Shown piece after piece: positions 5,528 through 63,628 of a stretch of 64,000 nt of DNA. This DNA is from a virus. The notes beneath the pieces are model-generated. The model worked only from the letters and a program-made list of their open reading frames with translations, was not told where the DNA came from and did not search any database. Each line of letters begins with the position of its first letter. The first letter of the stretch is position 1. The stretch covers positions 24,604 to 88,603 of the IMG/VR virus record IMGVR_UViG_3300044949_001245; one strand, written 5' to 3'. The position numbers and the translations under genes were made by a program.

Positions 5528-7104
5528 TGTACAATGTTTACGTTATGCTCTGATTTTAATCTCGCAATCACATTGTTACTCAGCGGTGAACCAGCCTCAA
5601 AACTCATCAAGGCTTTGGCAAATTCTTCATCATAACCGCCTTTTGCGATTGTAGCAGCATCAAGTACATTAAGGATTGCCCCTCTGTGTTCGCTGGTATG
5701 AAGAGTGGCATTGCCGGCAGCACGACCTCCTTTTTCAAGATTGTCCGCTCCAAAGTTGCGCTCAACATAACCTTTAGTGATAGACTTGCGTCCAGTGGGC
5801 TGTGTAGAAAGTTCCTCTACTAATTCAAGTGCTTTTTGTAAGTCCTCTCTAGTAGCACGCAACTCTCTTTCTTGGCGCCACATTTTGCCTTTTAGCAATT
5901 CTGTAGCATCCATCTGTGCCTTTACTAATTGTGCAAGGGCACGTACATTTTGCGTATTTGAACTTGTTGACTCGTTGATAGCTTTGATAATGTCAGTTTG
6001 GAAAGATTTTTTCACATACTTCATCCCCTTTTCTTCATTGTCCTCATCTTCATCTTGCTCCCCCTCTTCAGAGTTCATTTCATCTTCATTGTGAGAATCA
6101 ACGTCAATGTGAATTTCTTTTTTCAGACCTTTGCCTTTTTTCATTTCGTCATCGGCAGCATCTTTTTTCTTTTTCTTGGCATCATAACCATACTGCTCTT
6201 TCATGACTTTTGCAGCAACCTCTTCATCTGACTCTTCGTCATCTTCATCGGCATCATTGCTTTTTGGCTTTCCCATGGACTTTTTCGCTTTCTCCAAAAA
6301 TGGATTTTCGTCCATATTTTCCAAACCCAGAGCACTCATGGCTTTCTGAAGGTCTTTGGTTTCGATTGTTTTTCCTTTTAACATTGCTTGTTCTATTTTA
6401 ATTAACAGATTGTTGAATTGTTCTGCTTTTTCAATACTAATACCTGGGAATGTGTCAAAAATTTTATCATACCTTTGCTCCTCAGTCATATTCTTCACCT
6501 TGTACCCATCTACGCTGGCGGGCATTAGCGCACGACCATCGCCTGTATCTAGTGTCTTTTTTGTATCAACATCATCCTCTTCATTCTTCTCCATATCGTA
6601 ATCACACCCCTTTCCTTTAATAATATCAGCGAATGTTTGAGGATTTTTAGGCATGTGTGTAATAGCCAATCCTGTTATCTTTGCTTGCTTTACTATTTTA
6701 GGATTGGTAACGTCACGCTCAATAACAGTTCCCTCAATACTGTACCCTAGTCTGCGTGTCTTTGAGTCTTTCTGGAGAACTTCCGCAAGTTGATAAACCT
6801 CTTTGGCTAAATCACTATTTGGATACAAATCAGTTTCTACATAAAACCCATCCTTGCGAATTTCTGCTTTGCATGGCTCACCTATGATTGTGGCTGGGCT
6901 GTTCTTGGCTTGGTGATGCCAATTCACAACTCCTGACTTTTTGAAATCTGAAATGTCAAACCCAGATGGGTCAAGAAATTCACCATCAGCATCTTTATCC
7001 ATAGTGGAGGCAATACCCCCTAGTCTCATCACTTCCTTTCCATTCTTGTCTTTCCCCTTACTTATTTCAACAGGGCACCAGAACTTAAATTTTTGCTCAG
7101 CCAT
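5524..7104 (-). CDS. prohead protease fused to acidic scaffold region
   Basis: GIAST..D.DGE, VNWHH, LGYSIEG and LAIT..P.N motifs, then a long charged coiled-coil region with many K[AGS] sites. Confidence 0.85.
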   Translation of the reverse strand: MAEQKFKFWCPVEISKGKDKNGKEVMRLGGIASTMDKDADGEFLDPSGFDISDFKKSGVVNWHHQAKNSPATIIGEPCKAEIRKDGFYVETDLYPNSDLAKEVYQLAEVLQKDSKTRRLGYSIEGTVIERDVTNPKIVKQAKITGLAITHMPKNPQTFADIIKGKGCDYDMEKNEEDDVDTKKTLDTGDGRALMPASVDGYKVKNMTEEQRYDKIFDTFPGISIEKAEQFNNLLIKIEQAMLKGKTIETKDLQKAMSALGLENMDENPFLEKAKKSMGKPKSNDADEDDEESDEEVAAKVMKEQYGYDAKKKKKDAADDEMKKGKGLKKEIHIDVDSHNEDEMNSEEGEQDEDEDNEEKGMKYVKKSFQTDIIKAINESTSSNTQNVRALAQLVKAQMDATELLKGKMWRQERELRATREDLQKALELVEELSTQPTGRKSITKGYVERNFGADNLEKGGRAAGNATLHTSEHRGAILNVLDAATIAKGGYDEEFAKALMSFEAGSPLSNNVIARLKSEHNVNIVQ

Positions 7105-7115
7105 TTTGTTATTTA

Positions 7116-7526
7116 TTAAATTTCTAAAATTCCAATATCAAGTTTGTTGGCAAACAAGAAATCATAAAGTATGTCTTGCTTGGTCTTTGGATTTTTGCCC
7201 TTAAAATCTGCGTGGGACATCGCTATGGAAGCAAGATAGTCACAAAACGCATTATGAAAGAACAAAATCTTTTCAGCTTTTTTGGTAGTCAATTTTATAT
7301 CATCAGGACAATCTTTGAAATAATGTGCTTTCATAGTCCTATCTAAAAAATTCTTTTGGTCATTGACATCAACCAACGGAAATTTGCCTTTGAATGGTAA
7401 CAGCTCACTTGGCTTATTTTCATAAAGCACTGATGTTACCTTTCCAATTCTAATAGATGTGAACTGGTTTCTGTATAACTGCTCCTCAGCGTCACCGCCA
7501 GCTTTCTCTTGTATGAACCATTCCAT
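7116..7526 (-). CDS. hypothetical protein
   Basis: 136-aa ORF tightly coupled downstream of the kinase/ART gene. Confidence 0.55.
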   Translation of the reverse strand: MEWFIQEKAGGDAEEQLYRNQFTSIRIGKVTSVLYENKPSELLPFKGKFPLVDVNDQKNFLDRTMKAHYFKDCPDDIKLTTKKAEKILFFHNAFCDYLASIAMSHADFKGKNPKTKQDILYDFLFANKLDIGILEI

Positions 7527-7528
7527 TA

Positions 7529-17636: not shown

Positions 17637-18365
17637 TTACCCCTTTACTATTGGAATTACACTGCTACCTCCTAATGGTTCATAAAACTGTCCGTAAGTC
17701 CAATAAAATGTATTGCCATCAAAAACCCAAGTCCAAATATCTACTGATTGTGGTGACGTTGGAATAAATGAAATCTTGGAAACGGCTTGCTCCACCGCTG
17801 CTTTCTGAAGATTGTCAACTTCTTGTTCCAGTAAATTTTCAAATTGAAACCGCCTGTTACCATTTATTACACGACTGTTTATTGGTGGGGAAATACTGTA
17901 TGTGTCACCTTTAGTTTGTCTCCCATCAATTATCAAGGTTCCATAGTCCCCATCCGATGCGTTGTTTATGTCAAGCTGGTAGTTGAAAATCTCATCATCA
18001 TCTTGAAAAATAATTTTAGCATTGTACCCTAGATAGTAACTCCAAGTGTATAAACCAACTCTATCTACATTTATTGACTGGAGTTGTAGTATCTGGAAAG
18101 CCTTTGGTATGACTGCCGGCACTTGTGACTCACAAACATTAAACCACTTACCAATAAACATACCCTGAAACGACATTGATGTTTCATCCATCGGTGCGGC
18201 AGTTGTAATTATTGCTTGATAGCATCTACTCAACCCCTCAGTATTTCGCACGGCTGAAAAATTTGAACCATTAATATCAGTGGCCCATCTTATGTAGGTG
18301 AATGCTTGTTTAACTACAGTTTCCGTACAAGGACAACCACAATCCTTTTGTCTAGTTTCTGCCAT
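17637..18365 (-). CDS. structural/fibre-like protein, shares repeat with 18394-19965
   Basis: DCGCPC and FTYIRWATDINGSNFS motifs. Confidence 0.5.
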   Translation of the reverse strand: MAETRQKDCGCPCTETVVKQAFTYIRWATDINGSNFSAVRNTEGLSRCYQAIITTAAPMDETSMSFQGMFIGKWFNVCESQVPAVIPKAFQILQLQSINVDRVGLYTWSYYLGYNAKIIFQDDDEIFNYQLDINNASDGDYGTLIIDGRQTKGDTYSISPPINSRVINGNRRFQFENLLEQEVDNLQKAAVEQAVSKISFIPTSPQSVDIWTWVFDGNTFYWTYGQFYEPLGGSSVIPIVKG

Positions 18366-23010: not shown

Positions 23011-23445
23011 TCAATTTTGTTTATCTAATAACTGTCGCTTGAACTTATTTATGTGCTTGTTGATGAAAGTTATTTCGATGTCGTCATCAGATGAATGATG
23101 AATGAAAATGCGCCATGATTTCATTTTCACTATCATTTCATTTTCACCGCCTGAACTATCTGGTATTGAGTACGTTTCAGATGATTTTGATGAGTAAATG
23201 AAATTGACTACATCCATGAAACACTCTACATCATCTTGCTCCGAAAATGAAAAAGTGACTAAACTGTTAACATCAGTGTTCAACAATTCAGCCACTCTAG
23301 TGTAATGTTCTACTTCCGTATTGGTCAGACTAAATTCACTTACTGCTTTGTAACGTAAACTTCTGTTGTTTGCGGACTGAACACACTCCGTTGCTTTCCC
23401 TCTCCAATTTTCATCTTCCAATACTTCTGGAACTCGCATAGCCAC
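23011..23445 (-). CDS. hypothetical protein (start uncertain)
   Basis: Fills the gap between genes; the upstream ATGs lie about 100 nt inside the kinase gene. Confidence 0.45.
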   Translation of the reverse strand: MAMRVPEVLEDENWRGKATECVQSANNRSLRYKAVSEFSLTNTEVEHYTRVAELLNTDVNSLVTFSFSEQDDVECFMDVVNFIYSSKSSETYSIPDSSGGENEMIVKMKSWRIFIHHSSDDDIEITFINKHINKFKRQLLDKQN

Positions 23446-24380
23446 ATTTCTATTTGGTGTAATGTAATTTTACCCTCTTTTGGTGTAACTATTTTATATT
23501 TGTTATTTTCTTTATCCCAATCCAAGTATTTGAAATCACCTATCTCAGCAAGTTTAGCCTTGGCCATGTCACGCAACATGTAAATTCCTTTTATCTGTTC
23601 GCCCTTACTTAATGACGGAAAAATTAACCGAATGCCGATGGAAGCACCTGGTCCAACATTCGTAAAATCATCTTGGTCAAACTTCATCAGTTGTATTCCT
23701 GAATATCTTGGCGCATATGTAAAGTCCTGATAAAATTCATGAGCAATAAAATCAGCAACTGCCGGCAATGTTTTCAAATAGCTTATTAACTCCTTTGGCT
23801 CTTTTGCGCTCAATAGCAGTTTGTTTATTTTTGGGATAGCAGAATGTATTGACGGAACAACTACTTGCGTGTAGCACCAATCTCTTTTCGCACCAGGACA
23901 AGCCTGTGAATTTATCAGATACGCATTTGTATAAGGATTGTTTCCAGTTTCTCTGTATCCGTATATCAACTCAGCCCACTCACCCTTATCGTACTGGTCA
24001 TAGCTTGGAAACATACCATCAAAAGATTTTTTCTGGCTACCTATCCACTCAAATGTTTCAGGGCAGTTAAATATCCTAAAAAGCATGATTTTCCAAACCA
24101 AGTCCTTTCGACTATTTGGCTCCATCAAAACGTGCTTTATTTGCCACTGCGAATGTCTGTCCAGTTCCCGAAAAACATTTGTGAATTTATGATTGGACAT
24201 AAATGGGTCTTGGCTCCATGGTCTTGATTCATTCTTTACAAATCTGCGGTGCCATATTTCTTGTCGCTCAAACATGGTTTGAAAAAATAAACCTAGATTT
24301 TCATCATCCACTTCCTTGTCCGATGATGGTAGGGCATTCCCCCAAGACTTCATACCATAAGCTGTTCTAAATTCTTCCAT
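23340..24380 (-). CDS. 5-hydroxymethyluracil DNA kinase-like protein (HMUDK helical / aGPT-Pplase1 family)
   Basis: ERQ.IW.RR...PWS.DP....KFTNVFRELDR, LFRIFN, YTNAY, GPGA..GI and IEMWLCEFQKY motifs. Confidence 0.8.
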   Translation of the reverse strand: MEEFRTAYGMKSWGNALPSSDKEVDDENLGLFFQTMFERQEIWHRRFVKNESRPWSQDPFMSNHKFTNVFRELDRHSQWQIKHVLMEPNSRKDLVWKIMLFRIFNCPETFEWIGSQKKSFDGMFPSYDQYDKGEWAELIYGYRETGNNPYTNAYLINSQACPGAKRDWCYTQVVVPSIHSAIPKINKLLLSAKEPKELISYLKTLPAVADFIAHEFYQDFTYAPRYSGIQLMKFDQDDFTNVGPGASIGIRLIFPSLSKGEQIKGIYMLRDMAKAKLAEIGDFKYLDWDKENNKYKIVTPKEGKITLHQIEMWLCEFQKYWKMKIGEGKQRSVFSPQTTEVYVTKQ

Positions 24381-31658: not shown

Positions 31659-33341
31659 CTAAAGAAATTTGAACTTGAATCCAGTGGTGACTTTTTTCGC
31701 TGCTATTGATGTAAGCCATAACGCCATAGCTTGGTCATCGTGTTCTCCGACACCCTCCAATCCTTTATCAGTCCATGTAACAGATGAAAGTTCCATAGCA
31801 AGTGAATCAGAAATGTCTATTGACTCCTGATTGCCTCTTGGTATCCGTATTTTGCCACGCTCAAACAAAATTGCTAGTCCAGGCAATCCTGCCTTTAGGT
31901 CATATTTGTTGCTTCCTGTCGTATGACCCTCGACAGGCAATCCAGCCCTCTCTGACTCTTGTACAAAAATCTGTTGGAATACGTTATTCTCCATTACCAT
32001 TATATCAGGCTGAAACGATGCGTTGATTTGTTTTATGACTGCTAGTTGTTCAGCAAAAGACTTGCCCCGAAATCTAGTAACATTCATCAACCACATATTC
32101 TCATTCTCATCTACTCCAGCGGTGATGATGACTGTGTAGTCAGCCCCAACTGAGCTGGAAATCGAAAAGTCAATACCAGTCACCACCCTATCGAATTTCA
32201 TTTTGTAAGCTGTTCTAGCACGTACAAATGTGTAGTCCTCCATCCTCACATATGCCCTTTCAATTACATCTTGAGGGAAAATTGATGACTCATTGGTAAC
32301 TGGCCTACATAAATTTTCCCTTGAAAAGATTATGTTGCCCTGTGTTGACCTCTTTTCCATCAACTCCTTAAATCCCCAACGCTCACGCCATAGTATGACT
32401 CCATTCGGAAATATGGCTGGATATTCCCTCACGTGCCACCCCTCCTTGCTTTTCAAATCTCCATATAGGTCATTAGCGTGGAATGGAGTTCCAACCACTA
32501 TAACTTGACCTTTGGGCACAATCATATTCATGATTACAGCGTGAAAATAATCTATGGACTTTTTTCTTTGAACCGAACTGTAAATCACGTTGTCCTTTAA
32601 TCCATCATCAACCACAATATATCCAGGGTGAGCACCACGTACTGATGAACCAAAGCCTTTGGTTGTTATCCTTGCTCCGTTTTTACAAACTATATCAGTT
32701 TTTGCCCATCCATCGTTCCGACCTGGAAATAATCTTTCACGCAAATCATCATTTTCTTCAATCGTGCTTTTCAAAATATCCAAAAGGTCAACCGCCTGTT
32801 GTAATGAAAATGAAAATAGAAATCCACGCTTGGATAATGCTAAATCATGGCGTGGTCTGGAGAACCCTGTGACTGGCTGGTATCGGTATAACTTCCAAGC
32901 CAGATACGCATTACTCCAATAGAATGATTTTCCGTGGTCACGTGCGGCAATTACGTTGAGTTTGTTGTAACGCATCGCCATATCTCCCCATTCCAGATGG
33001 TGCCAGTTCATTTCAAACTGCGGCATTTTACTCAAAATGAAATAGGTCAGATTTTCAATACACAAAGTTTCCTCTATGGTCTTTGTGAGTGTATCGAAAT
33101 AGCCTAGTTTGAGCTGTAGTTGGTTTTGCTTTCCGTAAATTACATTGAAAACCTCTTCCAAGATTATGGAATAAATCTCATCCACATCCTTTTCGTAACC
33201 TCCAAACAACTCCTTGGTGCCGGCATCATCCAAGTTGTTGATAATCTCATCCACAATACGAAATGCCTCATCAATTTTTTCAAACGACAAGGCATTTTGG
33301 TATTTGGAAATGATTTTTAAGTCCTCTTGTGATATGTTCAT
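31659..33341 (-). CDS. terL: terminase large subunit
   Basis: AARDHGKS Walker A, VRGAHP..IVVDD Walker B, VGTP, nuclease GIDF..S...ADYT and HDDQAMA. Confidence 0.9.
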   Translation of the reverse strand: MNISQEDLKIISKYQNALSFEKIDEAFRIVDEIINNLDDAGTKELFGGYEKDVDEIYSIILEEVFNVIYGKQNQLQLKLGYFDTLTKTIEETLCIENLTYFILSKMPQFEMNWHHLEWGDMAMRYNKLNVIAARDHGKSFYWSNAYLAWKLYRYQPVTGFSRPRHDLALSKRGFLFSFSLQQAVDLLDILKSTIEENDDLRERLFPGRNDGWAKTDIVCKNGARITTKGFGSSVRGAHPGYIVVDDGLKDNVIYSSVQRKKSIDYFHAVIMNMIVPKGQVIVVGTPFHANDLYGDLKSKEGWHVREYPAIFPNGVILWRERWGFKELMEKRSTQGNIIFSRENLCRPVTNESSIFPQDVIERAYVRMEDYTFVRARTAYKMKFDRVVTGIDFSISSSVGADYTVIITAGVDENENMWLMNVTRFRGKSFAEQLAVIKQINASFQPDIMVMENNVFQQIFVQESERAGLPVEGHTTGSNKYDLKAGLPGLAILFERGKIRIPRGNQESIDISDSLAMELSSVTWTDKGLEGVGEHDDQAMALWLTSIAAKKVTTGFKFKFL

Positions 33342-35576: not shown

Positions 35577-35791
35577 AAAACTTTTATTACATTAAATGGA
35601 TTCAGACAAAAACAATCGCCATCATCCTTGCGTATTAAATAGATGTCTTGTGGCGAAACAAATAGCACATCTCCATTTTTATCAAATACTCTGTCTGTTG
35701 ATTGTACTTTGTCTAACACTACACCTGTTCCCTCTACTCTTTCATTTTCAATGTAGTATGAAAATGCTATTTTCTTTCCGATGATGCTCAT
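35573..35791 (-). CDS. hypothetical protein
   Basis: 72 aa with 4-nt overlaps on both sides. Confidence 0.5.
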   Translation of the reverse strand: MSIIGKKIAFSYYIENERVEGTGVVLDKVQSTDRVFDKNGDVLFVSPQDIYLIRKDDGDCFCLNPFNVIKVF

Positions 35792-36255
35792 ATGTTTGAT
35801 GTTTTAGTTTGTTGTTCCGTATTGGTATCAGTGCTTCCAAATCCACCCTCACCTCTTTCGCTTTCCTCTAGTTCTTCAACTTCCTCAAGCTCAATAAATG
35901 GTATCGGTTGGATGATTATTTGACCGACTTTCTCCCCTACCTTGTAGATGTCTTTACCATGTAGGTTTGCTCCTGTGACTTGAAAGCGCAAGCAAATTTC
36001 TCCCCTATATCCTGAGTCAATTACTCCTACGCAGTTTTTCAAAATCAAATCTTTTTTTGTTACTGAACTTCTTGCGTAAAGCAACCCAACATACCCCTCT
36101 GGAATTTCCATAGCCAGACCAGTGTGGTACTGAACGAACTTTCCGTTTGAGTCCATATGAATTTGGATAGCTGTTAAGTCCATGCCGGCATCGCCCTTTT
36201 TAGCATAGGTTGGTATCACCGCCCTATCATCTAGTTTTTTAATTTTTATTTTCAT
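35788..36255 (-). CDS. dut: trimeric dUTPase (start revised to ATG 36255)
   Basis: GDAGMDL, ARSS, GVIDSGYRGE, RGEGGFGST. Confidence 0.92.
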   Translation of the reverse strand: MKIKIKKLDDRAVIPTYAKKGDAGMDLTAIQIHMDSNGKFVQYHTGLAMEIPEGYVGLLYARSSVTKKDLILKNCVGVIDSGYRGEICLRFQVTGANLHGKDIYKVGEKVGQIIIQPIPFIELEEVEELEESERGEGGFGSTDTNTEQQTKTSNI

Positions 36256-36527
36256 CTCAGATATTTTTTGTCTAACACTACCGCATTGCCTACAATACAA
36301 TCATTGAACCTCCGTGTCTTTTCATAGAACACTTGCGTGGCTATTTCATTGAGTGGTTTGTTCAACAATTTTCCCTCTTCATTAACCACCATTAGGGTGT
36401 TCTCATCAAGCCAAACTATTTCGATGTATCCATCGACAGCCTTTTGAAGAAATTCCAGTGATGCTTCTTTGTCGTCATTTTTTACGACCTCGACACTTCC
36501 GTCAGTTTTGATAATTTTTGCTTCCAT
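36252..36527 (-). CDS. DUF3846-like protein
   Basis: LQ.AVDGYIE, VNEEGKL...PLN..AT, IVGNAVV. Confidence 0.7.
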   Translation of the reverse strand: MEAKIIKTDGSVEVVKNDDKEASLEFLQKAVDGYIEIVWLDENTLMVVNEEGKLLNKPLNEIATQVFYEKTRRFNDCIVGNAVVLDKKYLR

Positions 36528-36781: not shown

Positions 36782-37100
36782 CTTGATTGTTTTTTATTTG
36801 TTCTTTAGAATTTTTGTTGAAATCATCGGTATGATTTTTATTGAAAGTATCAACAAACCAAGCGCAATCCTTTTTGTCGCTTTGGTCACAACCGCTATGC
36901 TGGTCTGGGCCAGTTTGTCTATTACAACGCTTACAAATTTTATTCATGTTATCGGTATTTTTTTCATGTATCATAGAAATCCTTGCCGGCAAAACTTCGA
37001 TTAAATTACATTCATCGCAACATTCACCCTCTTCCATAACTGGCTCTGGGTTGTTCCCATATCCACTCATTTCCTTATTACAAATACAGCACTTATACAT
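36756..37100 (-). CDS. Cys-rich zinc-binding small protein
   Basis: CCIC...YGNNP.P....CCDECN...V.PAR motif. Confidence 0.55.
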   Translation of the reverse strand: MYKCCICNKEMSGYGNNPEPVMEEGECCDECNLIEVLPARISMIHEKNTDNMNKICKRCNRQTGPDQHSGCDQSDKKDCAWFVDTFNKNHTDDFNKNSKEQIKNNQDGKDTFGV

Positions 37101-38112: not shown

Positions 38113-38868
38113 TTAATTTTTATTCAAGTTGATAATTACTTCCCAAAACGATGCCGGCAATTTTACGTTGCTCATCACAATACAATCCCTAAACATCGGT
38201 GCTATTTGTTCTGGCGTGTATCCAGCTATTCCGCAGCCTATCGCTGTGACTAGAAATGTCTTGCCTGTATTGGTTCTGGCGAACTCCTTAAACCTATGCA
38301 CGAACACCGAAATGTCCTCCAGAGACATTTGATTTTTGGTAGTCAAATCTACAGTGGGTATGGCGTATGTGTTTCCAGACATCCCCTCTTCCAAACCCCA
38401 TTCTGCTCCGAAATCTTCATGCGCTATTCTTGCCGCTCCACCTAGATGATGACCTTGAAGATTGGAGCCAAAAACGAATACCTCATTAACATCCAACTCC
38501 GTAATTTCATCAGAAACAATCCTGTCGTCATTAGCGAACAAATTCAAATCCATCTTCCGTAAATTGTACGGAACAGCATCCAAGTACCAGTCTATGGTGT
38601 AACCGACCTTTTCCAATTCCTTTTGAAGTTTGGCGCATCCCTCATAGGTTTCTATGTCCTCTTCACTGAACCGCTCCAGAACTTTACTAACCACGTCAGG
38701 TATGGCCTCAGGGCACTCAAATAAATCGTGCCCTATGACCTTGAAATCTACATTCGTCAAATCGTAAACTTGACCCTCAATAACTTCGCCCTCCACGTGC
38801 GTTACCACTTCTGTTTCTGTCCTGCCATCTAGGCTGAACTCAACTATATCTCCGACTTGTGCTCTCAT
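38113..38868 (-). CDS. protein with C-terminal A1S_2505-family (macrodomain-like) domain
   Basis: EVFVFGSNL.G.H.GGAAR.A...FGA.WG, YAIPT, FLVT.IGCGIAG. Confidence 0.7.
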   Translation of the reverse strand: MRAQVGDIVEFSLDGRTETEVVTHVEGEVIEGQVYDLTNVDFKVIGHDLFECPEAIPDVVSKVLERFSEEDIETYEGCAKLQKELEKVGYTIDWYLDAVPYNLRKMDLNLFANDDRIVSDEITELDVNEVFVFGSNLQGHHLGGAARIAHEDFGAEWGLEEGMSGNTYAIPTVDLTTKNQMSLEDISVFVHRFKEFARTNTGKTFLVTAIGCGIAGYTPEQIAPMFRDCIVMSNVKLPASFWEVIINLNKN

Positions 38869-43063: not shown

Positions 43064-43543
43064 CTAATTTGTATATCCAGAAATAATTACCCCAATCAAT
43101 ATGCCGGCAACCGCCCCTACGATGAACCCCCATACCATACCCTGTAGAAATCTATCACTGAACGTGCCCTTATCATCTTCTATAATTTTTATCACCTCCA
43201 TCGTTTCCTCTTCAGCCCAACTTATGACTTGTTCTTCATTTACATCGTCAAGCAGCGAACCATTGATGTCTTTCGACAAATGTAGCATTTCATGAAATAC
43301 CAGCGTTGCCGTTTCCTTTTCTCTCCAGCATCTTTTCAGGTTGATGAATACGAATGGCTCATGATTGATTGGCGACAAATTACAAAGTCCTGCTATGTAC
43401 GAACTATATTTTGTATTTTCATGGGCCAGACAATCATGAATGTTTAGTCCGAACATTTCATCTACATCGAAATATCGGAACAACTCCGATGGGTCATCGC
43501 TTAAAAACAGCGTGTATCCGTTTCTTGGGTATATTACCATCAT
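43064..43543 (-). CDS. HExxH metallopeptidase-like protein with C-terminal TM
   Basis: LVFHEMLH plus downstream EE. Confidence 0.45.
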   Translation of the reverse strand: MMVIYPRNGYTLFLSDDPSELFRYFDVDEMFGLNIHDCLAHENTKYSSYIAGLCNLSPINHEPFVFINLKRCWREKETATLVFHEMLHLSKDINGSLLDDVNEEQVISWAEEETMEVIKIIEDDKGTFSDRFLQGMVWGFIVGAVAGILIGVIISGYTN

Positions 43544-44567: not shown

Positions 44568-44864
44568 TTAATTTTCTACATGTTCTTCAAAGATAGGTAT
44601 GAACCATGAGTTGAAGTTATCAAAAACCCATATTGGAACTGATGGAATCAACCCTAGCTTCAGTATGCCTGTGTGATTATTGTAATTCATAATCTCCCAG
44701 CGGACATCCTCCAGAAATATATCCTCCAGCGTCAATCTATCCTCTTCACAATTCTTAACTATGGCTAATCCAAGAGTTGACTTGCCGGCAAAATGTTCGT
44801 CAAAATCATTTTGTCTTCCCTCTCCGTAATAAAGAAACAAAGCCTTCACTTTTCTTTCAGTCAT
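44568..44864 (-). CDS. hypothetical protein
   Basis: 98-aa ORF. Confidence 0.5.
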   Translation of the reverse strand: MTERKVKALFLYYGEGRQNDFDEHFAGKSTLGLAIVKNCEEDRLTLEDIFLEDVRWEIMNYNNHTGILKLGLIPSVPIWVFDNFNSWFIPIFEEHVEN

Positions 44865-46355: not shown

Positions 46356-46361
46356 CGGTAT

Positions 46362-48171: not shown

Positions 48172-48172
48172 A

Positions 48173-49100: not shown

Positions 49101-49102
49101 AT

Positions 49103-49444
49103 TTATTCGCCTTTGTATTTTTTTATTAAATCCTTATTTTTTTCATATTTCTGTTCCTTAATTTCCTTTTGATAATGCTGTTTCGACCTCTGCTTTAATT
49201 GTTCCTGTCTTTTAGCAATACCACTCTTGCCCGTTCCTGTTCCAAAATAAATTGTTGCGTCAGTCCAATCTATTTTACGCTCAATCCAAACCAACGGCAC
49301 GTTATTTTTAGGATTGACCAACACTTTATTGTACTTGTCCTTATACACTATCCCTGAACCAGAAATAACACTTTTGTATTCCACAATATGGAACTCTTCA
49401 TCGGTTTCTGGGCACTTGAAATTTGGCTCTCTCATATTACACAT
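49103..49444 (-). CDS. hypothetical protein
   Basis: 113 aa with basic C-terminus. Confidence 0.5.
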   Translation of the reverse strand: MCNMREPNFKCPETDEEFHIVEYKSVISGSGIVYKDKYNKVLVNPKNNVPLVWIERKIDWTDATIYFGTGTGKSGIAKRQEQLKQRSKQHYQKEIKEQKYEKNKDLIKKYKGE

Positions 49445-49988
49445 TTATTTTTGATTTCAACAAGTGAAGAATATGAATAGCATCAGCTTCATTATCATCC
49501 TCCCCTTGATATCCCCATAAACTTTTGGCATATTCAATCATAACCTCTTTATTGGCATTCCCCTTACTAGTAGCAAATTTCTTAATCTCTGAGGCAGCAA
49601 ACTCAATATACTCCACCTCATTCTCCACGCACACTTTCTCAATAATCGCTATCAGTTTTGATGAATGTATTATTGGGTTGATATTCCTACCTGACGGCAA
49701 CTCATAGGCAATTATTTCTATGTTATTCTGCTGGATAAATTTAAGCAATCTAGCTTCAAAACGTATCCATTTCATGCCCTGACTCTCTTTACTACCTATC
49801 TTCAAATCCCACAGCTCAACTTTGAATTCATCGGTGTTTGAAGCCTGATATGCCACTCCGCACTTCGTTGCTTGGTCAAAGGCTGCGATATTCATCAAAG
49901 GTTGTTTTTTAGACAACTTTAATTGTTTGGCTCTGCCGACCTTATCATCAATCAACTTTTGCTTCGCTTTACTTCTAGTTTTTGTCAT
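49437..49988 (-). CDS. RuvC-like Holliday junction resolvase
   Basis: AFDQAT.CG, AYE, IKKFAT.KGNA.KE.M, DDNEADA. Confidence 0.8.
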   Translation of the reverse strand: MTKTRSKAKQKLIDDKVGRAKQLKLSKKQPLMNIAAFDQATKCGVAYQASNTDEFKVELWDLKIGSKESQGMKWIRFEARLLKFIQQNNIEIIAYELPSGRNINPIIHSSKLIAIIEKVCVENEVEYIEFAASEIKKFATSKGNANKEVMIEYAKSLWGYQGEDDNEADAIHILHLLKSKINV

Positions 49989-51849: not shown

Positions 51850-52210
51850 ATCTTATTCTGTTTGGACTTACTACAAATCGGTATCTTGGAGAAATCATTT
51901 TATGATTAACCAACTCCTTTATTTTTAACTCTGCCTTTGATGGTCCAGCCTTGCTTAAAACTTCATCGGCATGTTGAATGGCTTCCTTGGGTGATTTGAA
52001 AAAATCTGACACCCTTGCGCCCGAAATCCCCTCTGAAACCACCCAAACCACTTCGCCATCCTTAATCATTTTATGAAGAAAAAAATCGAACTTGTCAAAG
52101 CCTTTGATTTTCACTTTCATGGCTTTCAGCACTTCTTCAAAATAGTCCGACTTCCTGAGCCAAAAGGCATTGTTTATTTGTACGAATGAATTAAATCTCA
52201 CTATAATCAT
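51773..52210 (-). CDS. hypothetical protein
   Basis: 145 aa between the SbcD-like and SbcC-like genes. Confidence 0.45.
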   Translation of the reverse strand: MIIVRFNSFVQINNAFWLRKSDYFEEVLKAMKVKIKGFDKFDFFLHKMIKDGEVVWVVSEGISGARVSDFFKSPKEAIQHADEVLSKAGPSKAELKIKELVNHKMISPRYRFVVSPNRIRYVATKQNKDSKPVLPRRYRVQVLAE

Positions 52211-53237
52211 CTTTCAAAATTTTGAGCCCCACACTTCGCTTATCAGCTGGTATTTCTTGTACCTTACAATATTGTAGAAAATGCTTCAAAATAGTTTTCA
52301 TATCGAATTGAGTAAAATTATCACCATCTACTTCTACAATGCCGGCAGATGAGTCTTCATTTTCAAACTTACAATCTATTCCTACATCGGTGAACCTACT
52401 CAATGTTATTTTGTCTAAATCAGTTTTTTTACCTACAAAAATAAATCTTACATGGTCTTTGGAATTTGAATGTACCTCCAGCTCATTTTCAATCGCAGTG
52501 GCATCTGACGCATCAATCCGTACTTTTTTGTATTTTGGAAATTCTGACTCCCTGAATTTTATCGAACCATCGCTGTACAATATCGTGAAGCCTTTGTCTG
52601 TGATATTCTCTCCATAGTTTGCTTGATACGCTGACCCTATGTAGAATATGTTATCACCGACCTCGCTAGCATCATGGTAGTGTCCCACCAGAACTTTATC
52701 CCAGAACTTCATTCTTGACGGAGCAATTCCATCCTCCACTATGCTACCATCGTTGTTACGAACTCCGTTGAAAGACTTGTGAGTGATGAGTATGTTTTTC
52801 TTGGCTTTCTTTTTACCTACTTGTGCTTCAAGTTGCTCTAGCCTATCGGTATATGAAGCAGTAAAATACGGCAGAAATGCCACGCATACATCGCCAAATT
52901 GCTCATAGCCTTGCGAACTGAATAACTGGAGAACTCCGAACTGTGAGAACACATCCAGATAGCTTGCTTCTGCGTCTTGGTCTGTTTTGTCGTGATTGCC
53001 TGGTATTCCATGAATCATCACTCCATTTTCTTCAGCATGTTCCAAAACACGTTTCATAGAAAGCAAGGTGGATAGATTTTGACCTATTCTGTTAGTGAAC
53101 CAATCGCCAGCGTGAAAAATTCTCCTACACCCCAGCTCCACTGATAGCAAAACGGCTTGTCTAAATATGTCCTCAACCAAGTTCAAATTATCTTTGTTCT
53201 TGTGAGTATCTGTTAAAATTACAGCTACAGGCTTCAT
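52191..53237 (-). CDS. SbcD/Mre11-like metallophosphoesterase nuclease
   Basis: TDTH, AGDWF, PGNHD, GHYH, GSAYQ. Confidence 0.88.
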   Translation of the reverse strand: MKPVAVILTDTHKNKDNLNLVEDIFRQAVLLSVELGCRRIFHAGDWFTNRIGQNLSTLLSMKRVLEHAEENGVMIHGIPGNHDKTDQDAEASYLDVFSQFGVLQLFSSQGYEQFGDVCVAFLPYFTASYTDRLEQLEAQVGKKKAKKNILITHKSFNGVRNNDGSIVEDGIAPSRMKFWDKVLVGHYHDASEVGDNIFYIGSAYQANYGENITDKGFTILYSDGSIKFRESEFPKYKKVRIDASDATAIENELEVHSNSKDHVRFIFVGKKTDLDKITLSRFTDVGIDCKFENEDSSAGIVEVDGDNFTQFDMKTILKHFLQYCKVQEIPADKRSVGLKILKDDYSEI

Positions 53238-56139: not shown

Positions 56140-56408
56140 TACTCAATTATTTCTTTGTTAATAGAATTTCCAGCAACTTCGTTATGCTCAATCATCCGCT
56201 GTAGATAGTCTTGAGCCTTTAATAAATCCGTCATGTTGTTCCCCTTACTTGAACCAGGTCTTGTAAACCTATCCAAATACCTCTTAACATTTTCGGCACA
56301 CCAGATGTCACCTCTTTCTTTGGACACCCTGTAATTGGTCGAAATTTGGTCATACTCTTTTGCTCCGTACTTCGACCTGTTTGATTGTTCTAGTTGTTTA
56401 ACGTCCAT
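56139..56408 (-). CDS. DUF3310-like (T7 gp1.7 nucleotide-kinase-related) protein
   Basis: NVKRYL.R......K....DLLKA.DYL.R.IE. Confidence 0.55.
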   Translation of the reverse strand: MDVKQLEQSNRSKYGAKEYDQISTNYRVSKERGDIWCAENVKRYLDRFTRPGSSKGNNMTDLLKAQDYLQRMIEHNEVAGNSINKEIIE

Positions 56409-57033
56409 ATTTTGCGAAATTTAGTTTTTTGATATCATTCAATACTTTATCCTTAAACTCTGGATAATTGGTCTTCATCGTGGCCAAGCAATTACAGGCT
56501 GACTCCTTCACTTTGAAGGAACAATAATCATATTCTACAAATAGATTTTGGTTCCCCAATCGTATTTCTTTCTGAACGTAATACGACATGGACAGCCAGT
56601 CAGCCAATTTAACTATTGTTTTTGTAACTTCACTAACATCGCCCAACAAATTTTTTCTCAACATCAGATTGGTTGGAGTATTTTCCTTGAACTTCTCCCT
56701 AGTCATATTGTCGCAAAATTCATCAATCAATTTCTTTATTTTTTCTCCGTTAAATTCATTGTACTTAACAGTGTGACCTATATCACCCGAAAACATTTCA
56801 TCAAAGTCATGAAATAAGGCATACGTCACGACCTCCAATTTAAGGTGGTCATCATTGCTCTCCAATAGTTCCTCCACTAGTATTCTTGAGAACCAAGATA
56901 CAATAAAGGAATGGTGGGCAACAGACTCATTATTTATGCGCCCTAGTCCGTTCCATCGAATTAAATTATTGAGTTGGTCAAAGTCTGGGTCAGTGAATAT
57001 CCTGTCGAATATATTTTCCATATTATTTATCAT
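56398..57033 (-). CDS. HD-domain 5'-deoxynucleotidase (YfbR/DatZ-like)
   Basis: RW......ESVAHHS, ALFHDFDE..SGDI, VKLADWL. Confidence 0.8.
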   Translation of the reverse strand: MINNMENIFDRIFTDPDFDQLNNLIRWNGLGRINNESVAHHSFIVSWFSRILVEELLESNDDHLKLEVVTYALFHDFDEMFSGDIGHTVKYNEFNGEKIKKLIDEFCDNMTREKFKENTPTNLMLRKNLLGDVSEVTKTIVKLADWLSMSYYVQKEIRLGNQNLFVEYDYCSFKVKESACNCLATMKTNYPEFKDKVLNDIKKLNFAKYGR

Positions 57034-60000: not shown

Positions 60001-60637
60001 TTGAAATGTTCAATAAATTCCTCCAACCGACTTCATCCTTGACGTACAGTTTCAAATCAAACAAATTTTGATTTTCTGAGCTGGCGTCATAGTCTATGGC
60101 TATGGAAATCGTAACTCCGTGTACACACCTCAATCCACCTTTCTTACAAGCCATCTGTAGCGGCAATGTTCCAGCAAGTGTATTTTTCTCACAAATGCCT
60201 ACCGCCCCATGTCTCATAAACTTCGCCTTTTGAACCCACTTCGATGGCTCACCACTTCCGTTCAATAATTCGTACCCAGTGTGAACTCCTAGATTGACAA
60301 ACCCTATGGATTCAAATTTTGATTGATACTCTCCTAGATTGACTAAATCATTGAATACAGGCTCATAAACCACATCACCTTGCTCATCCCTCTTTTCCTC
60401 CAACGTGGAATAATAAAATTTTGTACCCCACTTAAAAACCACATGATTCAAATCATCATCTTGGTATAGCAAATCATCTTCTTCATCCGTGAGTAAGAAC
60501 TCAAAATTTTCTCCTATCAACTTTCCATCAACCCCCTCTATGTAAAGCAACCGACCAAAAGATGGAATGTTTACAATATGCCCGGCAAATTTGTAAATCA
60601 GCCCTCTAGCATCTAACCATTCTTTTAATTCATTCAT
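57023..60637 (-). CDS. dnaE: DNA polymerase III alpha subunit (family C)
   Basis: PHP VHTGYELL, GPARGSAGGSLVAY, LFERFLN, PDIDVDF, RPGPM, YQEQIM, YGFNRSHS.AY. Confidence 0.95.
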   Translation of the reverse strand: MNELKEWLDARGLIYKFAGHIVNIPSFGRLLYIEGVDGKLIGENFEFLLTDEEDDLLYQDDDLNHVVFKWGTKFYYSTLEEKRDEQGDVVYEPVFNDLVNLGEYQSKFESIGFVNLGVHTGYELLNGSGEPSKWVQKAKFMRHGAVGICEKNTLAGTLPLQMACKKGGLRCVHGVTISIAIDYDASSENQNLFDLKLYVKDEVGWRNLLNISKLVNVDYAGFIPEEMLLERTEGLICVFATEGYFNRLISDKASALKYIKKYKRCFGEDLFYQIDCSEYDDDGYDLKILKNIGTYLNDFSKLLKPVLISDTYYVEKFDYKVKEYLNKVDRKAHPYSVEQYYKDVDDFFDKFVPHFEKNPKLFDLILKGAENTKIIADACTYQVDTGNHKLPKFEVDDPEKLYDDLIAIGFKKKVLSKFADESKIVEYLDRVDEENSVIKGAGFIHYFLILWDIIEWAKSQDILVGPARGSAGGSLVAYLLGITEIDPIQYKLLFERFLNKARVSGERAKSADALPDIDVDFEGARRQDVKRYIEEKYGFDYVCSIGTYTRLKPKSAIKDFSRVKGLTFQEVNDATRDLEDSHDPDWKEIFSYAIVKQSLKKFVQSNVDICEVIKAPMGQPRSGSIHPSAVLIVPKTDSNGKPMKIHDWMPVKLMDGQLVSEWEGKYIDAAGFLKEDILGIAQLDKFKYILSEIRKNKEKRVNLNKIPMDKPEVMKYFKRGWNEDVFQFGTSGLKNYSKKVRPDGIEDLISMNALFRPGPMDSKAHEKFVEIKHGKLEPAYDYKLEVVTENTFGLYIYQEQIMQAVNVLGKLTLAEADELRTAIKKFDHAKMNSAKEKFLNGAMENGCPKSEAEAIWDKLNAFSAYGFNRSHSAAYSLMGYWCQYLKVMYPLEFWTASLNFADEKVEIPNRLSEIEKIGSGINVRQPDVNKSDIQFTADPSSNSIYWSLTKIKNVGQVAVQHILEERSARGQFFDLEDFIKRVPKSKVNKRVIQALIIAGAFDEIGGDAGTPISEVKQRMYILKKHCSITDCDYIEGFPNTDVENSNWFWSIKQRELTGFGFVDFLPMIRKKDNKLKKYPYVTAKDFETMDFKEGKPWKPELNGKPFTIAGSVHGIKVYRTKANGNYRVVITVESNNVLIFIGVFGDLWETISEDFEHLSEKKLLFAVNGYALSNKYQKSKHAKGSGNNHLWLTKQSKLIALNDK

Positions 60638-61887
60638 AACTTTCCTATTGGTGACAAATACTCATTCCTTAACTCTGGACTTTTTATCCTAGCCACAAAG
60701 AAATTCGCAGCCAAAGCTAAAATATCCAGCGATGGATAGTATTGCCCCAAATCAGACAGCTCTTTAGTTTTTTGATACCTAAACTCATCTTTGGGGATGA
60801 TGCGTTTTTCATCATCATTTAACAATTCTTTGTAGTGGGTGTAAACTTCCAAGATATCATAAACCAAAGCCAAGTATTTTGAAAACTCAGTCAGCTCAGC
60901 GAAATCAGCATTACTCATCCTCTCCCCAGACTTGAGTGTGTTGATGATTAACTCCAGATATGAGTCAACCTCATGAAGCCTTGCTTCGATATTTTCCGAA
61001 CTGAATTTCATATCCATCCTAGCTGGAAAATAGTTATCATACAGGTCAGGCAACTCTGCTCCATTAGCAAACTGCGTGTGTTCATACATTCTCATAGCTA
61101 TGTCGTTGTCTGTATAGAAATGAAGACTTTGAGAATTATGAGTTTGAGTACCTAGTTGTATATCTAGTATGTTAGCCATTATCTCAGTTATGAAACTGAA
61201 CTGAAATACGTTTGTAGGCAACCCCCAATGTAAGTCATTACTCCTATTCGCTATGGTAGTGTGTAACTTCCCATTACGAATTTTCAAGAACACCATATCA
61301 TTACAAGGTATGTCTTTACTGTTCTTTGCTAAATCTAAATCAACATTCCAAATAGACATCACCGCACGTCTGTCGAAATGATTATTTTTTAACATCTTCA
61401 GGCACTCCAATACTTGGTCTGTTCCCTCCGACATCTGTTGTAAATAGTGTCCGTGATGCTCTGGTTGTACTATATCTAGTTTGAGCTCAAGTTGTAAACT
61501 TTTTTTGAAAGACTCAAAGTTGTAATTTGAATCCACTCCATAATGTCTCAATCGAAATCCGTATGGAGCATGAAAAACTTTTCCGTTGTCAGAAAATTCA
61601 CGCATCCTTTCGTTAAACATAGATAAAAATTCAACATCACGCTCACCTTTGAAAATCCAAATGGCTTCAGCCAACAAAAAGAAAATGTTAATATCACGAC
61701 CACAACCGCCCACGCAACGATGATATGGACTAGTCAATGTGGTCTTGAAATTTAGAATTTCTTTTGTGTGTCCATACCTACTATCAACTGACTCTCCGTT
61801 CTCAATAAGATATTTGTTTATCAAAGGATAAACCCCCGAAAATGCTTTGGTGACTACGCTGTCATTCACAATTAAATCTTTTCTCAT
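60634..61887 (-). CDS. thymidylate-synthase family, probable dUMP hydroxymethylase
   Basis: AEAIWI..G..D, FSDNG...APYG.RLR, DIPCN, RSNDLHWGLPTN (Asn at the dUMP-specificity position), SLHFY; 417 aa. Confidence 0.75.
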   Translation of the reverse strand: MRKDLIVNDSVVTKAFSGVYPLINKYLIENGESVDSRYGHTKEILNFKTTLTSPYHRCVGGCGRDINIFFLLAEAIWIFKGERDVEFLSMFNERMREFSDNGKVFHAPYGFRLRHYGVDSNYNFESFKKSLQLELKLDIVQPEHHGHYLQQMSEGTDQVLECLKMLKNNHFDRRAVMSIWNVDLDLAKNSKDIPCNDMVFLKIRNGKLHTTIANRSNDLHWGLPTNVFQFSFITEIMANILDIQLGTQTHNSQSLHFYTDNDIAMRMYEHTQFANGAELPDLYDNYFPARMDMKFSSENIEARLHEVDSYLELIINTLKSGERMSNADFAELTEFSKYLALVYDILEVYTHYKELLNDDEKRIIPKDEFRYQKTKELSDLGQYYPSLDILALAANFFVARIKSPELRNEYLSPIGKL

Positions 61888-61952: not shown

Positions 61953-61984
61953 GTTTTTCTGCTTTTTTATTTTACCTCAAAACA

Positions 61985-62986
61985 TTATTTCGCAGACTTT
62001 TTACTAGCTTTCTTGGCAGGTGCCTGTGTTTCCTCTACTTCTTCAACATCCTTGGCTTTGGTTGTCTTACCAGCCTTGGTTGCTTTCTCCGCATTTTCTC
62101 GCTTTAACTCAGCCTCCATTTTTTCTCTGTTCTTTCCTAGCTTTTCATCTTTTTTAGACAGGCTGGACAGAACTTCGTTGAACGCTTTTTTATTTTTCTT
62201 CAGAGCAGCGGCAAGGTCAGTCACGCTCATTCCTACTACAAGGATGTTTCCAGACCATGATTTTTTAGTTTCGATATCATCCCCGAAAAGATTTTTCAAA
62301 ACTTCCTCATCCTTCACTGAAGACAAGTAAACACGACCTACAACTTCACCCTCTTTAGTCACCTTTGGACTATCGAATGACAAGAACACTTTTTTGCTAT
62401 TTTTTCCGCAGTACTTAACAGACACCCCTCCGTTCGCAATAAAGTTGAATTCAAATTCATCCCCCTCTAGTGCCGACTTCAGTGGAGCATATCTTTCAGC
62501 ATCCTCATCGTTCTGGAGTGGGTTCAACCTCTTACTAGGTTTCTTGTCAGCAGTTTGCTTGGCTTTCTTTTCGGCTTTCTTTTCTACTTTAGCCTGTTTC
62601 TTGTCGTTGGCTTTACTCTCATTTTTAGCCTTTTTCACGATGGGCTCATCATCTTCCTCCTCATCATCTTCCTCTTCATCGTCATCCTCTTCATCATCTT
62701 CCTCTTCATCGTTGTCCACATCGGTTTCTTCAACCTCATCATCTAACTCATCGGCAGCAGCATCCAATGCTTCCTCCGTGTCGTCATAGATGGCGTCAAC
62801 CATGTCATACAATTCTTGGAAAGACTCATCCTCGACATCATCAATGTCTTGTTTTTTAAGATAGTCAATCATCTTGGTTCGTGCCTCTTCCATAGTGGAA
62901 GCAGTGATACCAACTTTCGCTAAATCCTTAACCTGCGCAGGACTCAGTTTTTCGCTTTGGCTTTCGCCTTTCTTTTTTGTTGCCAT
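61985..62986 (-). CDS. hypothetical protein with long D/E tract and Lys/Ala-rich segments
   Basis: 333 aa; DDEEEDDEED repeats. Confidence 0.6.
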   Translation of the reverse strand: MATKKKGESQSEKLSPAQVKDLAKVGITASTMEEARTKMIDYLKKQDIDDVEDESFQELYDMVDAIYDDTEEALDAAADELDDEVEETDVDNDEEEDDEEDDDEEEDDEEEDDEPIVKKAKNESKANDKKQAKVEKKAEKKAKQTADKKPSKRLNPLQNDEDAERYAPLKSALEGDEFEFNFIANGGVSVKYCGKNSKKVFLSFDSPKVTKEGEVVGRVYLSSVKDEEVLKNLFGDDIETKKSWSGNILVVGMSVTDLAAALKKNKKAFNEVLSSLSKKDEKLGKNREKMEAELKRENAEKATKAGKTTKAKDVEEVEETQAPAKKASKKSAK

Positions 62987-63043
62987 TTTCTGTAATTTTT
63001 ACAATTTAACATTTAACATTGTACGAAGATAAACTTTGTAAAT

Positions 63044-63628
63044 TTAATCGCAATGGGTAACCACTTTGTAAATTTTTGCTTCTTCCAATAATTCTGGAAC
63101 CCACTTGCGCATTTTCTCAATATTGCGCTTTATACTATTTTTAGCACTTTTTCCGCTTTTATTGATTTTGTTGATTTTACTGATTGGAAATCCTTTTAGA
63201 TACAACATGAAAAACTTTTTCTCATCTTCTGGGACATCGTGAAGAATGTCGGTCAACCCGACCATCACACGCTTATTTCGGAAATCAACTTCCACATTGA
63301 AGTCCTCTTGTCCGTAATCGAACTCCAAGTCAGACATCGACATTGTTGCCGGCACCGCATTTATCTCCCGAATGAAATCTTTGACCTTGTTAATCATTAC
63401 TGTCTTCAAATAATACTTCAAGGGCACAGGCTTTCCATATCCTGTAGTCTTGTATTGCTTGTAGTTTCTCAGATAGGTTTCTATGGCTGTCCATAGCCTT
63501 ATCCGTAATTCTTGAACAATGTCATCCCTTTCCATCGAAATCTGATGCTCATTAAAAATCTTGCTGGCGTAATACTTCGCCAAGTGTTCGTTTTTCTCGT
63601 ACAGTCTGAGAATTTTGTCTTTTACCAT
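63044..63628 (-). CDS. phage sigma-70-like factor
   Basis: ERDDIVQELRIRLW.AIETY, Y.KT...NKVKDFIR, and region-4-like FMLYLKGF...KI. Confidence 0.65.
   Translation of the reverse strand: MVKDKILRLYEKNEHLAKYYASKIFNEHQISMERDDIVQELRIRLWTAIETYLRNYKQYKTTGYGKPVPLKYYLKTVMINKVKDFIREINAVPATMSMSDLEFDYGQEDFNVEVDFRNKRVMVGLTDILHDVPEDEKKFFMLYLKGFPISKINKINKSGKSAKNSIKRNIEKMRKWVPELLEEAKIYKVVTHCD

Follow-up and report, generated by a model that had tools for sequence, protein, structure and literature searches.

A palindrome multiplied in a phage genome otherwise purged of its CCGG core, and its probable shielding by hypermodified thymidine

The stretch of DNA analyzed here (the window, 64,000 nucleotides) comprises bases 24604–88603 of the 88,603-bp IMG/VR virus record IMGVR_UViG_3300044949_001245, which we call G000 and which is linear and rated 89% complete, with ∼11% of the genome outside the record. 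This phage genome carries 17 copies of the 8-bp palindrome TGCCGGCA, 12 of them in the window, while the CCGG core of the palindrome is nearly absent elsewhere (18 CCGG in the record, 13 in the window). We found that many short palindromic sites survive in G000 almost only when a T stands directly before them, and that TGCCGGCA provides CCGG with a T that precedes a G on both sides. The sparing of TGCCGGCA is, in our judgment, probably explained by a TG-specific hypermodification of thymidine; we are more confident of the flank rule as such, since it was obtained by direct counting. For comparison, we used three complete or nearly complete IMG/VR relatives of ∼100 kb each (G002–G004), which are syntenic with G000 across the whole genome with protein identities of 26–67%, and a 23.6-kb locus, L086, which is the closest relative compared (77% identity in DNA polymerase III, PolIII); a nearer relative, P0001 (93% PolIII identity), lies outside the comparison.

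A preliminary description of the window, made from its letters alone, had listed 12 exact copies of TGCCGGCA and a single other CCGG in a near-match at 60580–60587. All of these coordinates match, and the near-match is GCCCGGCA, whereas the G+C content given as ∼36% was measured at 38.7% for G000. The 13 sites are as follows, with the strand of the gene in brackets (aa, amino acids; ORF, open reading frame).

5712..5719: TGCCGGCA, Ala-Gly frame, in a 526-aa ORF at 5524–7104 (minus); aligned residues differ in G002–G004
18114..18121: TGCCGGCA, Val-Pro-Ala frame, in ORF 17637–18365 (minus)
23760..23767: TGCCGGCA, Leu-Pro-Ala, in the PF18723 gene (minus); relatives have Phe-Pro-Ala, written as TTCCCTGCG or TTTCCTGCT
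33218..33225: TGCCGGCA, Ala-Gly, in ORF 31659–33341 (minus); Arg/Lys-Gly in relatives
36183..36190: TGCCGGCA, Ala-Gly, in the dUTPase-family gene 35788–36300 (minus)
36984..36991: TGCCGGCA, coding ambiguous, within both ORF 36537–37004 (plus) and the open frame 36759–37124 (minus)
38152..38159: TGCCGGCA, Leu-Pro-Ala, in ORF 38113–38868 (minus); Leu-Pro-Lys in relatives
43102..43109: TGCCGGCA, Ala-Gly, in ORF 43064–43543 (minus)
44783..44790: TGCCGGCA, Ala-Gly, in a 98-aa ORF at 44568–44864 (minus)
52340..52347: TGCCGGCA, Ala-Gly, in the Metallophos_2 (Mre11-like) gene 52191–53237 (minus); Leu-Asp-Gly-Val in L086
57610..57617: TGCCGGCA, Ala-Gly, in the DNA polymerase III alpha gene 57023–60637 (minus); Glu-Asn-Gly-Cys in L086, a gap in remoter relatives
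63347..63354: TGCCGGCA, Val-Pro-Ala, in the sigma-70 region 2 gene 63044–63628 (minus); Glu-Leu-Lys in L086
60580..60587: GCCCGGCA, the sole CCGG that is not part of an octamer; flanked in the TG manner on a single strand, coding strand TGCCGGGC

Every copy lies inside an ORF, and two frames are used in the window: Ala-Gly in seven copies, as had been described, and x-Pro-Ala in four with certainty, the proposed fifth (36984) counting only if the minus frame 36759–37124 is read. The preliminary description had expected fewer than one octamer and several tens of CCGG; our null models give 0.1–0.5 octamers. Dinucleotide-preserving shuffles of the window gave 0.26 copies of TGCCGGCA, with a maximum of 2 in 100 shuffles, and 59.5 ± 7.5 CCGG against the 13 observed. 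For the whole record, Markov models of order 1, 2, and 3 predict 0.43, 0.27, and 0.10 copies of TGCCGGCA, i.e., an observed/expected ratio (O/E) from 39 (order 1) to ∼165 (order 3), and the word is the top over-represented 8-mer in G000 (Poisson p ∼4e-32). A synonymous-codon shuffle, in which proteins and codon usage are kept and which had been proposed as a check, left the enrichment standing, with a mean of 0.52 copies and a largest value of 3 in 300 shuffles against 17 observed, and 88.8 ± 8.1 CCGG (smallest 65) against 18. It could be argued that the word arose by chance or merely follows from the codons and amino acids that the phage uses, since all copies are coding and the two frames spell common dipeptides. 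The Markov and synonymous-codon nulls rule this out for practical purposes, and GCC and GGC each account for only ∼17% of their own codon family.

The copies are written into coding DNA by codon choice as well as by changes of amino acid. TGCCGGCA fills 10/17 T-Ala-Gly-A contexts and 6/9 xTG-Pro-Ala contexts, that is, 16 of 26 synonymous opportunities, whereas GCC-GGC is used in none of the 92 other Ala-Gly pairs; the Gly codon GGC appears in 11/17 T-Ala-Gly-A contexts versus 17% overall. Since the residues encoded by the copies also vary among relatives, the earlier view that this is a positively retained, DNA-level signal holds. Its density is one copy per 5.2 kb, or 192 per Mb (17 copies versus ∼110 ORFs in 88.6 kb). 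The sequence around the copies shows no longer consensus, the copies follow no rule of position inside genes, and their spacing is slightly more regular than random (P ∼0.07).

CCGG is indeed purged from G000, as had been stated (18 in the record versus 68–115 expected), but it is one among many purged palindromes rather than a singular case. In the record, CGCG is absent (55–115 expected), GATC occurs once (275–294 expected), TGCA 44 times (∼294–464 expected), and GGCC 40 times (∼115–141 expected). Longer palindromes are affected as well, with no copy of TTTAAA (∼84 expected), TTATAA (41 expected), or TTCGAA (26 expected), nor any of CTTAAG, ATCGAT, TCTAGA, and many more. The lists of purged words in G002–G004 overlap with that of G000 but differ from it, a pattern that different host restriction repertoires would be expected to give. 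In having many 4- and 6-bp palindromes strongly under-represented, G000 resembles other phages that avoid restriction sites. It departs from them in that the avoidance depends on the flanking base, and in that one avoided core is found inside a palindrome that is ∼40-fold over-represented.

To score the dependence on the flanking base, we counted a site as T-flanked if a T immediately precedes it on one strand or on both, for which base composition predicts 52%. All 40 GGCC in G000 are T-flanked (TGGCC on either strand; binomial p 4e-12), as are nearly all of those in G002–G004, and the same applies to 179/183 GANTC in G000 (binomial p 4e-45). Other sites in G000 that follow the rule are GCGC (82/86), GCSGC (21/21), GGWCC (23/23, with 22 flanked on both sides), GGSCC (12/12, all on both sides), GAATTC (19/19), GATATC (23/25), GCTAGC (7/7), GTTAAC (3/3), and GTCGAC (5/5, all on both sides). 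Sites that begin with C or A served as controls and show no bias (CATG 58%, AGCT 48%, ACGT 42%, CTAG 54%), and neither do the G-initial, high-count sites GTNAC (50%) and GCWGC (47%), which we read as probably free of restriction pressure.

A natural control is offered by GANTC in G003, which has 397 copies, 207 of them T-flanked (52%), whereas G000, G002, and G004 have 183, 174, and 154 copies, with T-flanked copies numbering 179, 168, and 153 (97–99%). The four genomes thus have T-flanked classes of about equal size, and what is lost under pressure is the unshielded class alone. The rule is present in the clade nearest to G000 (L086, L091, L092, L104, L117, L123, and L149 among others) and was not seen in remoter clades of phages with PolIII, where, for example, GGCC stands at 106:52 and 29:19. 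Two other explanations for the flanks were set aside. Trp-Pro encoded by TGG-CCN is not the cause of TGGCC, since it accounts for only 7/40 and the word is found in either orientation with respect to the coding strand. Degenerate enzyme specificities were also considered, but no combination known to us reproduces the patterns of GGCC, CCGG, and GANTC, and the single T-flank rule was kept as more economical.

CCGG obeys a related rule, in which the T stands one base further out. In G000, TG is present at −2 on at least one side of all 18 CCGG and on both sides of 17 (expected, 14% and 0.5%, respectively), and TCCGG is absent from the record, every CCGG being part of GCCGGC or CCCGGC. CCWGG behaves similarly in the relatives, with TG at −2 in 19/39, 20/33, and 22/44 sites in G002–G004 and no enrichment of a T directly before the site. 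Elsewhere, the one-sided form TGCCGG is the main surviving one (3/4 in L093, 5/6 in L099, and 5/7 in L152 and L162), while 6/7 CCGG in G002–G004, and nearly every CCGG in ten gut-type metagenome loci, lie in TGCCGGCA. The absence of TCCGG, the TG at −2 in CCGG and CCWGG, and the survival of one-sided TGCCGG together suggest that a T followed by G protects, while a T followed by C does not.

We propose the following explanation. Thymidines would be replaced and then partly hypermodified by the 5-hydroxymethyl-deoxyuridine (5-hmdU) route, with a bulky modification placed on the T of the dinucleotide TG, where it would block endonucleases acting at adjacent targets. Host restriction enzymes would purge almost every short palindrome that they can cut, and a target would be spared only beside a modified T. 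G-initial targets would be shielded by the T immediately before them. For CCGG, the nearest possible T of the TG type would be two bases off and would be needed on both strands, a requirement that would resemble what is seen at GGWCC and GTCGAC. TGCCGGCA would be the only 8-mer to give CCGG its nearest modified T on both strands, which would account for 17/18 CCGG lying within it. Of the options put forward in the preliminary description, the best fit is the one that involves modification enzymes encoded by the phage itself.

The gene content of G000 is in keeping with this proposal, since four genes point to a noncanonical thymidine.

23340..24380 (minus): PF18723 (5-hmdU DNA kinase helical domain) protein, Pfam E 9.6e-51 over residues 30–328
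35788..36300 (minus): dUTPase/dCTP-deaminase-like protein (dUMP supply), identified by Pfam
56398..57033 (minus): YfbR-like HD-domain 5'-deoxynucleotidase (nucleotide-pool editing), identified by Pfam
60634..61887 (minus): thymidylate-synthase-family protein of 417 aa, PF00303, E 1.8e-23

The PF18723 protein has orthologs in G002–G004 (50–53% identity) and tblastn matches in SP-10-like Bacillus phages, one record of which is annotated as aGPT-pyrophosphorylase clade 1. The 417-aa protein is a candidate dUMP hydroxymethylase, although the family match does not tell hydroxymethylase from methylase. No match to the C5, N4/N6, or D12 DNA methyltransferase families was found in six frames of the record at E ≤ 1, under conditions in which control genomes gave matches.

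Thymidine hypermodification is known to shield phage DNA. Passages of the digestion study by Flodman et al. (2019; PMC6449724) state that resistant sites in M6, ViI, and phiW-14 DNA mostly contain TG or TC, and that such a preference is "very likely" a property of the 5-hmdU DNA kinase. The same passages describe phiW-14 DNA as resistant to NaeI and NgoMIV and offer the flank "tGCCGGC" as a possible reason, while in part of a later paper conversion of 5-hmdU is said to take place "in sequence-specific contexts" (Lee et al. 2021; PMC8989533). G000 has PF18723- and thymidylate-synthase-family genes in common with M6, ViI, phiW-14, and the Bacillus phage SP10. Unlike in M6, ViI, and phiW-14, where resistance is known from digests and a TG/TC preference has been suggested, the evidence in G000 is an evolutionary footprint in the sequence alone, and the preference is apparently for TG only, since no TCCGG survives. 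G000 also differs from all four in adding a near-complete purge of unshielded sites to the proposed shielding. Furthermore, the known hypermodified phages infect Proteobacteria or Bacillota, whereas the host of G000 is probably of the Bacteroidota type, and no P-loop kinase was found in G000. Avoidance conditional on a flank was not found for hypermodified phages in the titles and abstract openings searched; the supplementary tables of resistant sites in PMC6449724 might bear on the TG preference. Both ingredients are familiar, the purge being ordinary phage restriction avoidance and the shield a known function of thymidine hypermodification. On this view, a genome by itself reveals which sequence context a hypermodification prefers, surviving restriction sites marking the modified base, here T before G. 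What digests had suggested tentatively in 2019 thereby becomes a genome-wide pattern with a natural control (GANTC in G003), and modification contexts in uncultured phages could be predicted cheaply, which would help in the choice of enzymes or cloning strategies.

The ∼40-fold excess of TGCCGGCA is a second layer, which is real and is not explained by shielding. Other shielded TG..CA words have O/E of only 1.0–5.3: TGGCCA 18 (17.3 expected), TGCGCA 16 (11.7 expected), TGGWCCA 22 (10.2 expected), TGAATTCA 9 (5.1 expected), TGATATCA 10 (2.4 expected), and TGTCGACA 5 (0.9 expected). TGCCGGCA itself has an O/E of 2.2–5.1 in G002–G004 versus 39 in G000, and 1–3 copies versus 17; no iterated palindrome of another sequence was found in G002–G004. 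Positional conservation in relatives, suggested earlier as a test, is lacking, as none of the 12 alignable G000 octamers is shared with any relative (45–77% PolIII identity). L086 has neither TGCCGGCA nor any CCGG in its 23.6 kb and reads Leu-Pro-Asn, Leu-Asp-Gly-Val, Glu-Asn-Gly-Cys, and Glu-Leu-Lys at G000 copies, while in five Ala-Gly copies the Gly is retained in at least some relatives and the preceding residue is variable. The G000 copies thus appear to be lineage-specific gains, some with amino-acid changes. A separate and smaller expansion is seen in the gut-type locus L091, with four copies in 23.5 kb, three of them gains; one copy arose through four changes in eight bases, as judged against a relative that is 90% identical over the surrounding 291 bases (binomial p 0.005).

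Simple mutational routes to the excess were rejected. A mutational trap was discarded by argument, as reversible mutation limited to viable states keeps neutral stationary frequencies. A one-step drive (CTGG→CCGG repair, TG→CG, or mispairing of modified T) is insufficient, since a second synonymous position is fixed (GGC in 11/17 contexts), and the dinucleotide O/E values, 0.69 for CpG (depleted) and 1.26 for TpG (in excess), are contrary to it. Since one-step bias and a trap are insufficient and mirroring of the host is so far unsupported, selection on all eight positions seems to be required, which would imply that something reads the palindrome. Our guess is that a dimeric phage or host protein reads the shielded word, and no candidate for it was found. 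We tentatively entertain the idea that TGCCGGCA, bearing a pair of modified thymines, serves as a self-mark read by such a dimeric protein. This could be a phage factor that recognizes its own hypermodified DNA and directs modification, replication, compaction, or packaging; alternatively, a host endonuclease of the CCGG family could be held harmlessly on a site that it cannot cleave. Should the idea be correct, the word would have been multiplied independently in several thymine-modifying phage lineages and would represent, in phages, the first equivalent of the iterated palindromes of cyanobacteria for which the chemical context is defined.

Several points weigh against explaining the sparing of TGCCGGCA by TG-specific hypermodification. 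The modified base, its preference for TG, and the restriction enzymes are all inferred from sequence. As reasoned rather than counted, the GCGC pattern could be reproduced by avoidance of CGCG and RGCGCY without any shield. A preceding T gives no rescue to GATC, which has a single copy and none as TGATCA, and TGCA is depleted about ten-fold in G000 and L086 (6 in the 23.6 kb) despite having TG on both strands. Because GATC and TGCA are unspared, the shield cannot be universal: either the modification does not hinder some of the enzymes, or these two words are under a different pressure. The shield also accounts for tolerance only; the 40-fold excess lies beyond it, given that the remaining shielded words occur at close to their expected numbers. 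Among the genes, a P-loop 5-hmdU DNA kinase was not identified in a record in which many ORFs have no family. The only P-loop candidate tested, a 314-aa ORF at 26692–27636 (minus), has matches in 1307 phage records, including T4-like and Bacteroides phages, none of them annotated as a 5-hmdU kinase; this protein, which we take to be clamp-loader-like, more probably acts as an accessory ATPase in replication than as a DNA kinase. Finally, a search among orphan ORFs for a protein that reads the palindrome (50 proteins against Pfam, 10 against PHROGs, 4 against PDB sequences, and 2 against a protein atlas) gave no methylase, restriction-like nuclease, or kinase.

Protection by methylation was one of the earlier suggestions, and an 8-bp palindrome with a CCGG core has the format of known restriction-modification sites such as those of SgrAI, MreI, FseI, and NaeI/NgoMIV. 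A methyltransferase of the host, or an unseen one of the phage, with specificity for the 8 bp or for GCCGGC, would then block a CCGG endonuclease; ∼11% of the genome is missing. We nevertheless judge this very unlikely. The record has no match to a methyltransferase family, as described above, and the sparing follows a flanking T rather than C or A. GCCGGC is flanked by T..A in 17/17 cases in G000 and in 6/6 in G002–G004, which a GCCGGC methylase does not fit, and the roughly nine other sites that obey the T-flank rule would each call for a methylase of their own. Like the modified T, methylation would yield tolerance and not a 40-fold excess.

The excess could instead be a working site of the phage, used by a nickase or by a recombination, replication, or packaging protein and kept despite restriction, with no part played by shielding. 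All eight positions are apparently selected, the spacing is slightly more even than random, and one copy is positionally conserved in G002 and seven gut-type metagenome relatives, at ∼2 kb upstream of the polymerase gene. In addition, ∼100 bp separate the copy at 36984, which lies where either strand has an open frame, from a gene for a 116-aa HNH_3 endonuclease (37093–37443, minus strand; Pfam) that has no counterpart in G002–G004. A site essential in a fixed number is, however, at odds with 17 copies in G000, 1–3 in G002–G004, and none in the 23.6 kb of L086, and a working site would hardly go without an extended consensus or a positional rule within genes. On its own, it would also leave the survival of one-sided TGCCGG in relatives and the T-flank rule at other sites unexplained, and we regard it as unlikely.

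Somewhat less likely still is a process driven by the host, whose chromosome would carry TGCCGGCA in a manner similar to the cyanobacterial palindrome HIP1; either mismatch repair linked to a methylase or selection for likeness to host DNA would then write the word into the phage. This would be in line with TGCCGGCA outnumbering its reversed control in most of the Bacteroidota genomes surveyed (placed in this phylum on the assumption that surveyed groups follow their center genomes), and with a claim, unchecked, that Chitinophagaceae and phages are saturated with another word, TTCCGGAA. Yet no host with HIP-like levels of TGCCGGCA was found among three surveys (151, 401, and 401 genomes, with a few in common) and eight sampled genomes. 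The densest surveyed genomes have ∼200 copies per Mb, no more than the 192 per Mb of the phage, and in sampled pieces of the eight genomes TGCCGGCA is at 1.5–3.3 times its order-2 expectation and makes up 1–3% of CCGG. L086, devoid of the octamer, argues in the same direction, and a drive from CTGG to CCGG does not explain GGC in 11/17 contexts or a CpG O/E of 0.69. The surveys also revealed that several genomes of 4–8 Mb from the order of genome G010 (G700, G782, G859, G644, G767, G803, and G817) have 0–3 copies of TGCCGGCA, some of them with tens of the reversed control word; these bacteria appear to purge TGCCGGCA or its core.

The format of the word is shared with eight-base restriction sites of the CCGG family, namely those of SgrAI (CRCCGGYG), MreI (CGCCGGCG), and FseI (GGCCGGCC), which have the same NN-CCGG-NN arrangement that a dimeric protein can read. 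A restriction target of this type would be avoided, whereas TGCCGGCA is multiplied, and we know of no enzyme with TGCCGGCA specificity. Among the literature matches listed for the word, there were only primers or unrelated genome notes.

The likeness to HIP1 that had been proposed stands in part. HIP1 (GCGATCGC) and alternate cyanobacterial palindromes are described in PMC4390886 and PMC5861425, and TGCCGGCA is likewise a GC-rich palindrome of 8 bp that exceeds its expected frequency more than ten-fold and is written into coding DNA by codon choice and amino-acid change. Neither word has an established function. Enrichment of HIP1 is given as 15- to 300-fold, with more than one copy per gene on average in some cyanobacteria (PMC5861425), and TGCCGGCA exceeds the lower figure. 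The likeness ends with density, at one copy per 5.2 kb rather than one per gene, and with conservation, none of the alignable copies being shared among the relatives compared. No cognate methyltransferase of the HIP1 type was found for TGCCGGCA in the phage record. Moreover, HIP1 is chromosomal, whereas TGCCGGCA is found in a phage in which its 4-bp core is purged everywhere else. G000 offers a phage example, and a clean one, of an iterated palindrome that seems to be under positive selection, in which the tolerance is probably understood and the excess is not, and the question of what reads such a palindrome is more tractable here than in cyanobacteria.

Pfam matches in the record also include the following: DNA polymerase III alpha subunit, portal protein, UvrD-type helicase, SbcC/Rad50-like ATPase, Mre11-like phosphoesterase, RecA, RNase H, epsilon-like exonuclease, a weak RuvC-like match, the sigma-70 region 2 protein (63044–63628, minus), amidase, glucosaminidase, and pyrimidine-dimer glycosylase. 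ORF 27687–28706 resembles a tail fiber by weak protein-atlas matches, which we treat as a lead only. Almost all genes in G000 are on the minus strand. L086 is circularly permuted relative to G000, its locus joining the right end of G000 to the left end, and since it spans both ends, the G000 record is probably near a full circle, or the genome is terminally redundant.

By PolIII, the nearest named phages infect Chryseobacterium, Cellulophaga, Tenacibaculum, and Bacteroides (31–37% identity). Near-identical DNA was detected in lake-water and freshwater metagenome runs from three studies beyond the possible source run, at shares of 0.64–0.78, and at lower shares in bioreactor, sludge, and wastewater runs; identical pieces were confirmed in three of four runs, by aligning contigs to 33150–53149. 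Habitat and phage relatives together suggest that G000 is a freshwater phage of a Bacteroidota-type host. One bioreactor run (X5) contains a strain that is ∼97% identical, with 247 differing letters over 7746 bases. Among the differences over 33150–53149, where uncovered parts are uninformative, the 40 listed, with 733 others outside the list, include none that hits an octamer.

Two minor observations concern the same interval. At 41154–41820, contig depth spikes to 121.8 (run X2) and 31 (run X4), compared with 2–10 elsewhere, and many loose ends are present; this segment, which spans two of the few plus-strand ORFs (40970–41377 and 41374–41586), may be a widespread or mobile element common to other genomes. 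The X5 strain lacks 186 bp at 43548–43733, which corresponds to most of a 65-aa ORF at 43540–43737.

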